Positions 4,221 through 52,115 of a stretch of DNA of 64,000 nt are shown in pieces. The translations under genes and the position numbers were made by a program. The stretch lies in the NCBI RefSeq assembly GCF_054482525.1, contig NZ_CM137006.1; one strand, written 5' to 3'. Each line of letters opens with the position of its first letter. The first letter of the stretch is position 1. The notes below the pieces were generated by a model. The model was not told where the DNA came from. It ran no database searches and was given only the letters and a program-made list of their open reading frames with translations.

Positions 4221-5270
4221 GTGCGGATATTACTTCGACCTGTTCTGGTACCGGAACTCGGGCTGGTGGTCCTTAGGCCGGGCCGTGAATCCATGCAAGT
4301 ATTTCATAACCCTCGAGTGCTGGTGGAGCCTGAACCGAAAAGCATGCGCGGTCTGCCGTCCGGAGTCGTCCCTGCCGTTCGCCAGCCGCTGGCGGAGGAT
4401 AAATCATTACTGCCATTTTTCAGCGATGAGCGGGTGATTCGTGCTGCTGGCGGCGCTGGGGCGCTGTCTGACTGGCTGTTGCGTCATGTCAAATCCTGCC
4501 AGTGGCCTCATGGTGACTATCATCACAGTGAAATCGTCATACATCGTTACGGTACCAGCGCGATGGTGTTGTGCTGGCACTGCGACAACCAGTTGCGTGA
4601 CCAGACATCCGAATCACTCGGGCAACTTGCTCATCAAAACCTGTCAGCATGGATGATTGACGTCATACGCCATGCAATGAATGGCACGCAGGAGCGGGAA
4701 TTGTCGCTGGCTGAATTATCTTGGTGGGCGGTCTGCAATCAGGTGGCGGACGCGCTTCCGGAGGCAGTATTACGTCGTTCTCTGGGGGTACGTGCGGAAA
4801 AAATCCGCTCCTTGTACCGCGAAAGCGACATCGTACCGGGAGAGCAGACCGCCACCAGCATACTGAAGCAGCGCACAAAAAATCTTGCGCCGTTGCCTCA
4901 TGCCCACCAGCAACAGAACCCACCACAGGAAAAGACGGTGGTATGCATCACCGTTGATCCGGAGTCTCCGGAATCTTTCATGAGGCGACCTAAACGTCGC
5001 CGTTGGCTAAATGAGAAATATACGCGCTGGGTGAAGACACAGCCGTGTGCGTGTTGTGGTCAGCCAGCCGACGATCCCCATCACCTGATTGGTCACGGTC
5101 AGGGAGGGATGGGAACAAAGGCCCACGATATTTTCACGCTACCGTTGTGCCGGGAACATCACAACGAACTTCATGCGGATCCGCTGGCGTTCGAAGAAAA
5201 GCATGGTTCCCAGGTTGATTTAATTTTTCGTTTTCTTGATCACGCCTTTGCAACCGGCGTGCTCGGGTAA
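4221..5270 (+). CDS. DUF968 (YdfU-like) protein with a C-terminal HNH-like Cys/His motif
   Basis: The GTG at 4221 follows GGAGGTAAC. The C-terminus reads CACCGQPADDPHHLIGHGQGGMGTKAHD...LCREHHNELH. The gene precedes rusA, as in Qin/Rac-type prophages. Confidence 0.7.
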   Translation: MRILLRPVLVPELGLVVLRPGRESMQVFHNPRVLVEPEPKSMRGLPSGVVPAVRQPLAEDKSLLPFFSDERVIRAAGGAGALSDWLLRHVKSCQWPHGDYHHSEIVIHRYGTSAMVLCWHCDNQLRDQTSESLGQLAHQNLSAWMIDVIRHAMNGTQERELSLAELSWWAVCNQVADALPEAVLRRSLGVRAEKIRSLYRESDIVPGEQTATSILKQRTKNLAPLPHAHQQQNPPQEKTVVCITVDPESPESFMRRPKRRRWLNEKYTRWVKTQPCACCGQPADDPHHLIGHGQGGMGTKAHDIFTLPLCREHHNELHADPLAFEEKHGSQVDLIFRFLDHAFATGVLG

Positions 5271-5642: not shown

Positions 5643-6328
5643 ATAACCAGTATTTACAGTTTGTGCGTGAGCAGCTCATTATCGCCACCGCTGATTTGAG
5701 TGGGGCAACAAAAGGTCAGCTTGAAGCCTGGCAAGAGAATGCCATGTTCGATACAGGGCGTTACAGGCGAAAAAAAATCCGGTACCGCGATGAAGTGACT
5801 GGAAAAATGATAACGCGGGATAATCCACCAATCCCGGGAAAGCAATCGCTGGCGAAGGGGACGTCAATTCCTCTGGTCAGTCCGGTTGAGTTTTCGACAT
5901 CATCGTGGCGGCGGGCTGTTTTGTCTCTTGAAGAACATCATAAAGCCTGGTTGTTGTGGTGTTACAGCGGGAGTATTTGTTGGGAATATCAGATCGCGAT
6001 AACACAGTGGGCGTGGAATGAATTTAATACTCAATCCGGTACCAGAAAAATTGCAGGGAAAACGCAGGAACGCCTGAAAAAATTAATCTGGCTGGCGGCG
6101 CAGGCAGTAAAAGCAGAACTTTTTGGTGGGGAAGGTTATGAATACCAGGAGCTGGCATTACTGGCGGGAGTGACAACTAAAAACTGGTCCAAAACATTTA
6201 CTCGTCACTGGGTTGCAATGAAACACATTTTTCACCGACTTGATAGTGAGGCTTTATTGTTTGTAATGAGAACACGTTCAAAACAAAAGGCGGCATTTTC
6301 AAAGCAAAGTATTGCAAAAGTAGATTGA
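5639..6328 (+). CDS. late-gene antiterminator Q (QuuQ/phage-82 type)
   Basis: The ATG at 5639 overlaps the rusA stop (ATGA). Length and position are right for Q: after rusA and before pR'-tR', the tRNAs and the lysis genes. Confidence 0.7.
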   Translation: MNNQYLQFVREQLIIATADLSGATKGQLEAWQENAMFDTGRYRRKKIRYRDEVTGKMITRDNPPIPGKQSLAKGTSIPLVSPVEFSTSSWRRAVLSLEEHHKAWLLWCYSGSICWEYQIAITQWAWNEFNTQSGTRKIAGKTQERLKKLIWLAAQAVKAELFGGEGYEYQELALLAGVTTKNWSKTFTRHWVAMKHIFHRLDSEALLFVMRTRSKQKAAFSKQSIAKVD

Positions 6329-6340
6329 AAGGCATATATT
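6312..6340 (+). promoter_or_regulatory. putative late promoter pR' (-35 TTGCAA, 17 bp, -10 TATATT)
   Basis: Hexamers read at 6312-6317 and 6335-6340. A terminator lies about 55 nt downstream, analogous to lambda pR'/6S RNA/tR'. Confidence 0.55.
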
Positions 6341-6393
6341 TCATGCAAATCTGATATTTTGCCGATTTTGTACGTGATGGCAAAAGCAAACAA

Positions 6394-6418
6394 AACCCGC
6401 CCACAAGCGGGTTTTTTG
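6394..6418 (+). terminator. tR'-like intrinsic terminator (AACCCGC-CCACAA-GCGGGTT + T6)
   Basis: 7-bp stem followed by a T-run. Confidence 0.8.
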
Positions 6419-6522
6419 TGCCACTTATCTCGGATAGACATGGTGAATGCGCTAGTGGAGGAGATAAGGGTGATTTTTGAATGCTTGCAACATTGATTTC
6501 GTAACGTTATTATCCTGCGCCC

Positions 6523-6599: not shown

Positions 6600-6676
6600 C
6601 CGCCACTAGCTCATCAGGAAAGAGCGTCAACCCTTTAAGTTGAGTGTGCGAGGTTCGAGTCCCCGGTGGCGGTCCA
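6600..6676 (+). tRNA. noncanonical tRNA-like gene: anticodon loop CCTTTAA (nominal UUU, C at position 33), C1-G72, U73
   Basis: Acceptor stem CCGCCAC/GTGGCGG is 7/7. D stem is GCTC/GAGC. Anticodon stem TCAAC/GTTGA is 5/5. T stem CGAGG/CCCCG has one A-C mismatch. The T loop is TTCGAGT and CCA is encoded. Confidence 0.6.
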
Positions 6677-6678
6677 GT

Positions 6679-6754
<76 letters not shown>

Positions 6755-6757
6755 TAT

Positions 6758-6832
<75 letters not shown>

Positions 6833-6838
6833 GTTAGA

Positions 6839-6884
6839 GTCTTTCAGTCTGCGATGATGGGAAATCCCGGAGTGACTGAAAGAC
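6839..6884. repeat. perfect 11-bp inverted repeat (GTCTTTCAGTC / GACTGAAAGAC) with a 24-nt loop
   Basis: Read directly. Arms are at 6839-6849 and 6874-6884. Confidence 0.8.
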
Positions 6885-6891
6885 GTTTAAG

Positions 6892-6963
6892 TTATGAATG
6901 ATCGCTTTTTTTGCAAAATTGCTGTGCAGAAATACTAACCTTCGGGCAGGCGATCATTCATAA
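6892..6963. repeat. perfect 14-bp inverted repeat (TTATGAATGATCGC / GCGATCATTCATAA) with a 44-nt spacer
   Basis: Read directly. Arms are at 6892-6905 and 6950-6963. Arm 1 is followed by T7. Confidence 0.8.
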
Positions 6964-7038
6964 GCACTCTGCTTTTATTCCGATTAACTGTGGGTGGTTT
7001 GTTGGATAGAGTGCTTCCCTTACTGTATATATCGTTTC

Positions 7039-7063
7039 GCCCGCTTTTGCGGGTTTTTCTTTT
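7039..7063 (+). terminator. intrinsic terminator (GCCCGC-TTTT-GCGGGT + T-run) upstream of the holin
   Basis: GC stem plus TTTTTCTTTT. Confidence 0.7.
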
Positions 7064-7123
7064 CAAATCCCTTTCATTTCTCAGTGTAAAACTACGCCAT
7101 CCGTTATTTGCGGAGGTGAGGCT

Positions 7124-7339
7124 ATGAAATCCATGGACAAAATTTCAACGGGCATTGCCTACGGCACCTCCGCAGGCAGTGCTGGCTACTGGTTTTTACA
7201 GTGGCTTGATCAGGTCAGTCCGTCACAGTGGGCTGCGATTGGTGTACTGGGGAGTCTGGTTCTGGGCTTCCTGACTTATCTGACAAATCTGTACTTCAAA
7301 ATCAGAGAAGACAAGCGTAAGGCTGCACGGGGAGAGTAA
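7124..7339 (+). CDS. phage-21-type class II holin (pinholin S21 family), dual-start motif MKSM
   Basis: The 71-aa sequence is essentially that of S21/EssD as recalled ([33 protein letters not shown]...). Confidence 0.9.
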
Positions 7340-7343
7340 TTCA

Positions 7344-43603: not shown

Positions 43604-43694
43604 AAAAAAAGCCGGCATCATGCCGGCCCAAAAAATATAAACAAGACGATAAAAGGCTAATAACGGAAGCATCATGACACAGAATAATAAAAAG
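43604..43694 (-). ncRNA. rseX: RseX sRNA (5' end approximate)
   Basis: A minus-strand terminator (GCCGGCATGATGCCGGC + T7) lies at 43627-43604. In K-12, rseX lies between yedR and yedS and is transcribed toward yedS (from memory). Confidence 0.6.
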
Positions 43695-52028: not shown

Positions 52029-52115
52029 AACACATCAGATTTCCTGGTGTAACGAATTTTTTAAGTGCTTCTTGCTTAAGCAAGTTTCATCCCGACCCCC
52101 TCAGGGTCGGGATTT
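52029..52115 (+). ncRNA. dsrA: DsrA sRNA
   Basis: AACACATCAGATTTCCTGGTGTAACGAATTTTTTAAGTGCTTCTTGCTTAAGCAAGTTTCATCCCGACCCCCTCAGGGTCGGGATTT matches DsrA, including its terminator. Confidence 0.95.

Follow-up and report, generated by a model that had tools for sequence, protein, structure and literature searches.

Stx-converting and other lambdoid phages carry an ileZ-argN-argO array of tRNA genes, in which argN, encoding tRNA-Arg(UCG), is positioned directly after an Ile2 tRNA gene and downstream of the Q gene; a literature search on ileZ/argN/argO returned no paper. In the host, tRNA-Lys(UUU) of E. coli (the lysT family) has the anticodon loop CUUUUAA. Here, we analysed a stretch of 64,000 nucleotides (the window) from contig NZ_CM137006.1 of NCBI RefSeq assembly GCF_054482525.1, in which a lambdoid prophage possesses an array of four tRNA genes in the order Ile2-CAU, slot 2, Thr-UGU and Gly-UCC, separated by spacers of 1-3 nt and homologous to the ileZ-argN-argO array. 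The slot-2 gene aligns with argN, and its anticodon loop, CCUUUAA, differs from that of E. coli tRNA-Lys(UUU) in position 33 only. An initial annotation had seen in it a noncanonical tRNA with a nominal UUU (Lys) anticodon that could serve as a nuclease-resistant replacement or decoy or could decode unusually, with a decaying pseudogene as the alternative. We find that the latter fits best, the slot-2 gene being, on balance, an orphaned and drifting derivative of a phage tRNA-Arg(UCU) that gene finders mislabel as tRNA-Lys.

Anatomy and descent of the slot-2 gene

The slot-2 gene reads CCGCCAC-UA-GCUC-AUCAGGAAA-GAGC-G-UCAAC-CCUUUAA-GUUGA-GUGUG-CGAGG-UUCGAGU-CCCCG-GUGGCGG-U-CCA, and the cloverleaf described in the initial annotation is present in all its parts. 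All seven pairs of the acceptor stem (CCGCCAC/GTGGCGG, starting with C1-G72) and all five of the anticodon stem (UCAAC/GUUGA, including C31-G39) are formed, the D arm is GCUC-AUCAGGAAA-GAGC, and the T loop UUCGAGU is carried by a T stem (CGAGG/CCCCG) with A51·C63 (6651/6663) as its sole mismatch. The anomaly that had been pointed out was verified as well, in that the 7-nt anticodon loop (6632-6638) places C33 (6633) in front of a nominal UUU anticodon (6634-6636) followed by A37-A38, while U73 (6673) precedes the encoded CCA (6674-6676). Compared with a canonical loop of 7 nt with U33 and a purine at position 37, the length and A37 are in place and the departure is at C33. Shifted or 8-nt loop readings, giving CUU or UUA as the anticodon, were ruled out by the unambiguous 5-bp stem, the 7-nt loop and the 3' stack of A37-A38 that fixes the frame.

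The initial annotation had proposed ARAGORN and covariance-model scoring as checks, taking a score below the pseudogene threshold as evidence against an unusual tRNA. ARAGORN called tRNA-Lys(ttt) at 6600-6676, and the Rfam tRNA model (RF00005, gathering score of 29) gave a full-length match above threshold (44.4 bits, model positions 1-71). This score is 20-30 bits lower than those of the neighbouring Ile2, Thr and Gly genes (72.5, 73.8 and 64.9 bits, respectively), and the model alignment contained one non-standard pair and a loop position 33 without consensus match. In genomes with an identical copy, NCBI also labels the gene tRNA-Lys. Thermodynamic folding was discarded as a test of function: the minimum free energy structure of the slot-2 gene is not a cloverleaf, but neither are those of genuine tRNAs (Ile2, Thr and host Lys), rendering the comparison uninformative.

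Comparison with argN accounts for part of the anomaly. The acceptor end of argN is CCGCCAU...AUGGCGG-U-CCA, so that the stem CCGCCA(C/U), U73 and the encoded CCA are common to both genes, as are the D arm with A20 and the T loop, with an overall identity of ~80-84%. Because the acceptor end of argN is the same, C1-G72 and U73, treated as special features in the initial annotation, are inherited family traits and not adaptations. By contrast, argN possesses the loop CUUCGAA (U33, C35 and G36), an anticodon stem of CCAGC/GCUGG or UCAGC/GCUGG, and G51-U63 in place of A51·C63, and its variants retain the cloverleaf. The slot-2 gene has the characters by which the family is recognized, namely a homologous body positioned directly 3' of an Ile2(CAU) gene and between Q and the lysis genes.

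A closer relative was found within the array family itself. We gathered 120 IMG/VR arrays via their flanks only (the 3' end of Ile2 and the 5' end of Thr), and 116 of them carried the window allele or its direct derivatives, while three carried a tRNA-Arg(UCU) and one a tRNA-shaped gene with a short anticodon loop (a short-loop cousin, described below). The Arg(UCU) arrays (L151, L195 and L167) have the UCAAC/GUUGA stem with a loop of CUUCUAA or UUUCUAA and a normal U33, and five further Arg(UCU) alleles are present in a sister array type. These alleles sit in the same array (Ile2, slot 2, Thr or Lys, Gly) and share stem and body with the window gene, from which they differ in U33, C35, a paired A51-U63 and, in some, G73; the Rfam tRNA score of an Arg(UCU) allele is 55.6 bits versus 44.4 for the window gene. 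By parsimony, CCUUUAA would derive from CUUCUAA in two events, either the U33C and C35U transitions or the loss of C35 with the gain of a C. E. coli tRNA-Lys, on the other hand, has the UUU anticodon, C32, A37 and A38 in common with the slot-2 gene, but the stems show no sequence relationship, and G1-C72, A73, A31-U39 and U36AAUC|A41 of the host tRNA stand against C1-G72, U73, C31-G39 and UAAGUU. As judged by these alignments, the window gene is not a lysine tRNA by descent and derives from the phage tRNA-Arg family.

In seven related loci (L133, L134, L143, L144, L164, L151 and L195), slot 3 is occupied by a thrU-type tRNA with G35U and A26G, which has a canonical CUUUUAA loop with a UUU anticodon, U33 and A73, and is linked to either the Arg(UCU) allele or a U8C form of slot 2. 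With this apparent Thr-to-Lys anticodon switch, UUU arose a second time, independently, within one array family.

Substitutions and lesions in the prophage population

Substitution rates were compared in 119 related arrays; given that some had been retrieved by patterns lying within the gene or the adjacent ones, those parts were masked and gene positions 1-52 were used. The slot-2 gene showed 24 segregating sites among these 52 (pi 0.034), compared with 32/186 in the unanchored parts of Ile2, Thr and Gly (Fisher p = 6e-5) and 35/292 in the downstream non-coding DNA (p = 7e-8), in tests that take sites as independent. It is thus 3-4 times more variable than the neighbouring tRNAs or the flanking non-coding DNA, and purifying selection comparable to that on the co-transcribed tRNAs was not seen. 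A species-level scan of genome contigs yielded six loci only, too few for cross-species tests.

The kinds of change were examined in an unbiased subset of 113 copies. Among 29 distinct substitutions, 12 break and 7 keep a pair, and varied sites are distributed evenly between the acceptor/T arms (13/31) and the D/anticodon remainder (13/42; p = 0.46). Two candidate signs of constraint were rejected on these counts. One was a role of the slot-2 gene as an RNase P handle, since lesions do not spare the acceptor/T minihelix; the other was an excess of C-to-U changes keeping G·U pairs as a mark of structural selection, given the majority of pair-breaking changes. C>T changes outnumber G>A (9 versus 5), a bias that transcription-associated deamination fits just as well. 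U8C, G18A or a broken pair was found in 31 of the 113 copies, and three more have deletions; the lesions comprise U8C (26 copies), G18A, changes of G24, C31, G52 and G66, a 7-nt deletion in the anticodon arm and a 1-nt deletion in the D stem.

The same decay is seen in complete E. coli genomes, of which 5,426 were searched. The best match is at least 99% identical to the slot-2 gene in 278 of them, while the exact C4U/U8C/C11U form is present in 171 and the exact D-stem-deletion form in 222, so that 393 genomes carry damaged forms, representing more than half of the genomic copies. Neither damaged form is annotated by NCBI, and the one with U8C does not reach the Rfam threshold. A neutral-like rate together with structural lesions in relatives is what a pseudogene would display. 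The D-stem-deletion form is typical of the PPompW prophages of enterohaemorrhagic E. coli. In these prophages (L004 401-476), it is followed by an argO-type tRNA-Arg(UCU) in place of the Thr-Gly pair and then by ISEc20; the depositors labelled it tRNA-Lys, while the NCBI pipeline skipped the same sequence in the 222 genomes.

The initial annotation would have taken C33 and U73 being unique to this copy, and not conserved in related prophages, as evidence against its reading. Both features are present in every copy of the allele, in hundreds of prophages, C33 being found throughout the 119 IMG/VR arrays and ~750 complete E. coli genomes. The gene thus survives this check, but shared descent predicts the same pattern, so that ubiquitous C33 is not evidence of selection and looks like identity by descent in a single young lineage of alleles. 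The loop itself varies at 1/7 sites against ~40% of sites overall, and is not significantly more conserved.

Identity elements and alternative readings

Arginine identity in E. coli depends on A20, C35, U/G36 and A/G73, and lysine identity on U34, U35, U36 and A73, with any other base at position 73 lowering charging (PMC9976931); replacing A31-U39 of tRNA-Lys by C31-G39 lowers lysylation by ~100-fold (PMC1483225). Of the arginine set, the slot-2 gene has A20 and U36, with C35 replaced by U; of the lysine set, U34, U35 and U36 are present, while A73 and A31-U39 are absent (U73 and C31-G39). The C35U change would remove a principal determinant for arginyl-tRNA synthetase (ArgRS), and U73 and C31-G39 are both expected to be unfavourable for lysyl-tRNA synthetase (LysRS). 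Because C35 is lost and U73 and C31-G39 are present, poor charging by ArgRS and LysRS alike is to be expected. Compared with the Arg(UCU) alleles, the determinants of the parent were lost through C35U and U33C, and the slot-2 gene is, to judge from its sequence, a derivative of the Arg family by descent and not a working member of it. Arg-family descent, missing identity elements, a raised substitution rate and frequently damaged descendants were all observed, whereas poor charging, and a lack of function in the still-intact copy, are what we infer.

The course of events may then have been as follows. The ancestor would be the slot-2 tRNA-Arg(UCU) of a lambdoid ileZ-argN-argO array, with the anticodon arm UCAAC-CUUCUAA-GUUGA, in which the two loop changes described above produced CCUUUAA. 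The change of C35 to U would at once remove a principal ArgRS determinant and create a new UUU in a body that LysRS should take poorly, owing to U73 and C31-G39. The RNA would probably still be made as part of the array transcript and released by RNase P, but most likely be charged little or not at all and contribute nothing essential. Selection would have lapsed since, leaving the allele to drift and break up in the E. coli prophage population.

Several points weigh against such a relic. C33 by itself is not disabling, as yeast tRNA-Leu(GAG) carries a natural C33 with minimal effect (PMC13492127). That S. cerevisiae tRNA is a functional natural elongator which keeps the identity elements of its own synthetase, whereas the slot-2 gene lost those of its ancestral synthetase. 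The determinant for the modification t6A, 36-UAA-38, is intact in the slot-2 gene, and TsaBD makes no base-specific contact with U33 (PMC13276492). The RNA is probably made, from a promoter of the array and by late read-through, because the promoter-like site upstream of the array is conserved: its −10 hexamer (6508-6513) shows no variation among 49 related arrays, in which 35 of the 42 columns of the surrounding short region vary. The exact window haplotype is the commonest single form (64/113 copies; 278 complete E. coli genomes) and passes ARAGORN, Rfam and the NCBI pipeline. The rate tests ignore phylogeny, recombination (which imports linked changes) and database redundancy. Anti-defence accessory genes are often lost too, so that frequent decay is no proof that an intact copy is useless, as it could still benefit its carriers in some hosts, and the cousins in the same slot keep a constrained tRNA body without a decoding loop, making a non-decoding role conceivable.

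A working lysine decoder, in which LysRS charges the UUU anticodon on a foreign body and a loop or stem uncleavable by PrrC, RloC or PARIS AriB allows AAA/AAG to be read once the host tRNA-Lys has been destroyed, appears quite improbable to us. Its attraction lies in the UUU anticodon with an intact 36-UAA-38, in the tolerance of C33 by a natural yeast tRNA, and in the second, independent UUU tRNA of the array family on a thrU body, which has U33 and A73 at its 7 loci. PARIS AriB requires U36AAUC|A41, with U39A abolishing, A41C reducing and U16C impairing cleavage (PMC12409363), and the slot-2 gene, with U36AAGUU41 and C16, is predicted from sequence only to be resistant; nor does it contain a paired CNG motif such as P2 Old cleaves (PMC12445682). 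However, the predicted AriB resistance stems from the Arg-type stem and not from C33. PrrC makes its cut at the junction of positions 33 and 34, as the initial annotation stated; our search found no published data on PrrC acting on C33 substrates, and yeast gamma-toxin, the only anticodon nuclease tested with U33C, cleaved that substrate equally well (PMC2275089). T5 tRNA-Lys is likewise a phage-borne UUU tRNA that differs from the host target (A39, C41 and C16, versus G39, U41 and C16 in the slot-2 gene), but it has been shown to be functional and to rescue infection, whereas the slot-2 gene carries C33 together with U73 and gives no sign of purifying selection. U73 and C31-G39 also speak against efficient lysylation; no move towards lysine identity is seen, the sole change at position 73 being a G imported with the 3' end of the Arg allele; further damage is present in over half of the genomic copies; and the co-resident Thr tRNA, identical to its host target, is itself not resistant. 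Arg-family descent, the lack of A73, C31-G39, fast evolution and damaged copies thus leave the initial proposal of a nuclease-resistant or unusually decoding tRNA-Lys without positive support, and nothing here indicates that the present gene is kept for nuclease evasion. If it were true, a PARIS- or PrrC-proof tRNA-Lys made from a tRNA-Arg via two point changes would represent compact anticodon switching under defence pressure. It is extremely improbable that the tRNA is still charged with arginine and acts as a missense tRNA inserting arginine at AAA/AAG. Such charging could draw on A20, the main E. coli ArgRS determinant, retained here with U36 and an argN-type body, but C35, a major determinant, is lost, and a Lys-to-Arg missense tRNA from a prophage should do harm, which sits badly with how common the allele is.

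A role residing in the body of the RNA has to be weighed against the short-loop cousins. A search with the body retrieved slot-2 genes of related arrays that share its acceptor, D and T arms, in which loops of 5, 6, 7, 8 or 11 nt sit on a conserved 5-bp stem (NYRAC/GUUGU). There are at least 47 distinct tRNA-shaped genes of this kind (for example in loci L211, L212, L214, L025, L233 and L314), with loops such as UAAAU, UUAAU, CCAGGU, CACGGU, CAUUAA, CAUAUAA, CAUUUAA and ACGAUAACAGG, most of them lacking U33. In the 47 distinct cousins, 98% of the cells in the alignment are standard cloverleaf pairs and pairs 7-66 and 51-63 covary; they fail the Rfam tRNA threshold, and none was present in the GenBank phage collection. 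In an unbiased flank-anchored set (n=37), their body (13/66 sites) is about as variable as the real tRNAs next to it (12/55 and 22/57), and the loop (5/6 sites, pi 0.38) about as variable as the intergenic DNA upstream (136/156 sites, pi 0.44). The cousins therefore look like RNAs under selection for tRNA shape rather than decoding. The window gene is closest in body to them, and many of them share its A51·C63 mismatch.

We regard it as unlikely, then, that the window gene is itself a non-decoding tRNA-shaped RNA acting through its body, as a decoy or sponge or as an RNase P processing handle between packed neighbours, with CCUUUAA as one state of a free-running loop. The cousins combine tRNA-like variation of the body with intergenic-like variation of the loop, many have a non-U33 loop (CAUUUAA, CAUAUAA or CAUUAA) and the A51·C63 mismatch, and the array spacers measure a mere 1-3 nt. 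In addition, an 81-nt family member is positioned ~25 nt upstream of yahM in 5,164-5,188 of the 5,426 complete E. coli genomes (~95%). But the lineage of the window gene, unlike those of the cousins, no longer shows constraint on the body, since U8C, G18A, deletions in the D stem and anticodon arm, and broken pairs are common, and the acceptor and T arms are hit equally often. The cousins have no described function, a literature search found no paper on them, and the conservation of their body could partly reflect gene conversion from functional paralogues. An extension of this proposal, in which the slot-2 genes (window gene included) and the yahM-upstream copy form an undescribed class of non-decoding tRNA mimics, with a selected body and a loop free to vary at 5-11 nt, is rather doubtful. 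Its members would act through the body, for instance by decoying defence or toxin enzymes that target tRNAs or by offering RNase P a processing handle, and C33 would be their usual non-U33 state. The occurrence, in numerous enterobacterial prophages as well as the E. coli core genome, of tRNA bodies conserved to the degree of real tRNAs but bearing short unconstrained anticodon loops could point to a use of tRNA shape outside translation.

Under the preferred reading of an orphaned tRNA-Arg relic, the gene labelled tRNA-Lys in several phage records and in hundreds of E. coli genomes would be an anticodon-mutated derivative of tRNA-Arg, from which neither a capacity to decode lysine codons nor codon compensation should be deduced. 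It would also call for caution in studies of phage defence, where an altered anticodon loop alone is not evidence of nuclease evasion and descent, identity elements and population data all need checking.

The array, its relatives and its surroundings

The Q antiterminator gene precedes the array and a class II holin gene (7125-7340) follows it; the end of Q (~6328) and the position of the holin gene were transferred from the annotation of an identical strain-165 sequence. The features of the region are collected in Table 1.

Table 1. Features of the tRNA array and its surroundings; positions refer to the window unless another locus is named.
Feature	Position	Strand	Basis
Promoter-like site TTGCAA-17-TATATT, 3' end of Q gene	6312-6340	+	Consensus scan
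Terminator-like G+C-rich hairpin followed by T run (AAAACCCGCCCACAAGCGGGTTTTTT), between putative late promoter and tRNA array	6392-6421	+	Sequence
Promoter-like site TTGCAA-17-TATTAT, 10 nt upstream of first tRNA	6485-6513	+	Consensus scan
tRNA-Ile2 type (CAU), slot 1, homologous to phage ileZ	6523-6598	+	ARAGORN Met/Ile2(cat); Rfam; NCBI tRNA-Ile; low diversity in related arrays
tRNA-shaped slot-2 (argN slot) gene, 77 nt	6600-6676	+	Sequence; ARAGORN; Rfam; homology to argN and Arg(UCU) alleles
tRNA-Thr(UGU), identical to chromosomal thrU	6679-6754	+	ARAGORN Thr(tgt); Rfam; 100% identity
tRNA-Gly(UCC), identical to chromosomal glyT	6758-6832	+	ARAGORN Gly(tcc); Rfam; 100% identity
Terminator-like hairpin and T run, between downstream leader of array and holin gene	7036-7064	+	Scan
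81-nt yahL-yahM intergenic copy (E. coli O157:H7 PV15-279; also L342, BL21)	L338 4001-4081

The promoter-like site at the 3' end of Q is placed as would be expected for a pR'-type late promoter, and the hairpin downstream of it, which the scan listed on the minus strand, may take the role of tR'. The second promoter-like site could provide the array with transcription of its own.

The ordinary appearance that the initial annotation had noted for the neighbours was borne out by the complete identity of the Thr and Gly genes with their chromosomal counterparts. The two lie side by side in the window (6679-6832) without tyrU, which separates thrU and glyT in the host operon, and they resemble a trimmed segment captured from the host thrU-tyrU-glyT-thrT cluster. 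Both P2 Old and PARIS are reported to target tRNA-Thr(UGU).

Two long inverted repeats follow the last tRNA gene at 6838-6886 and 6894-6961 (arms ~6840-6849/6874-6883 and 6894-6905/6950-6961, respectively), and together with the terminator-like hairpin in front of the holin gene they suggest a structured leader or a small RNA. At the equivalent place downstream of a related array (L314 2211-2417), Rfam matched STnc100, of which none was detectable in the window.

The 81-nt copy upstream of yahM is unannotated by NCBI and matches no Rfam family, and a TTGACA-type promoter-like sequence lies ~95 nt upstream of it. Its divergence within the species is too low for a test of constraint. Deeper conservation was sought via YahM homologues and discarded, as YahM is restricted to Escherichia plus Shigella and the seemingly divergent matches were alternative open reading frame calls beside an identical tRNA-like sequence. 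Literature searches on prophage Ile-Lys-Thr-Gly arrays, tRNA-like decoys and yahM returned nothing relevant. An array of Ile2, a short-loop cousin and a tRNA-Arg is also present between insertion sequence remnants on the 87-kb plasmid p2 of E. coli cM8a (L344 1423-1652), indicating that the array travels outside prophages too.

Further along the window, Rfam matched a sok antitoxin RNA (of a hok/sok-type module) inside the prophage at 2784-2958 and the chromosomal small RNAs rseX and DsrA at 43604-43693 and 52029-52115, respectively; the latter two matches put the prophage close to the dsrA region, on a chromosome of E. coli or Shigella.

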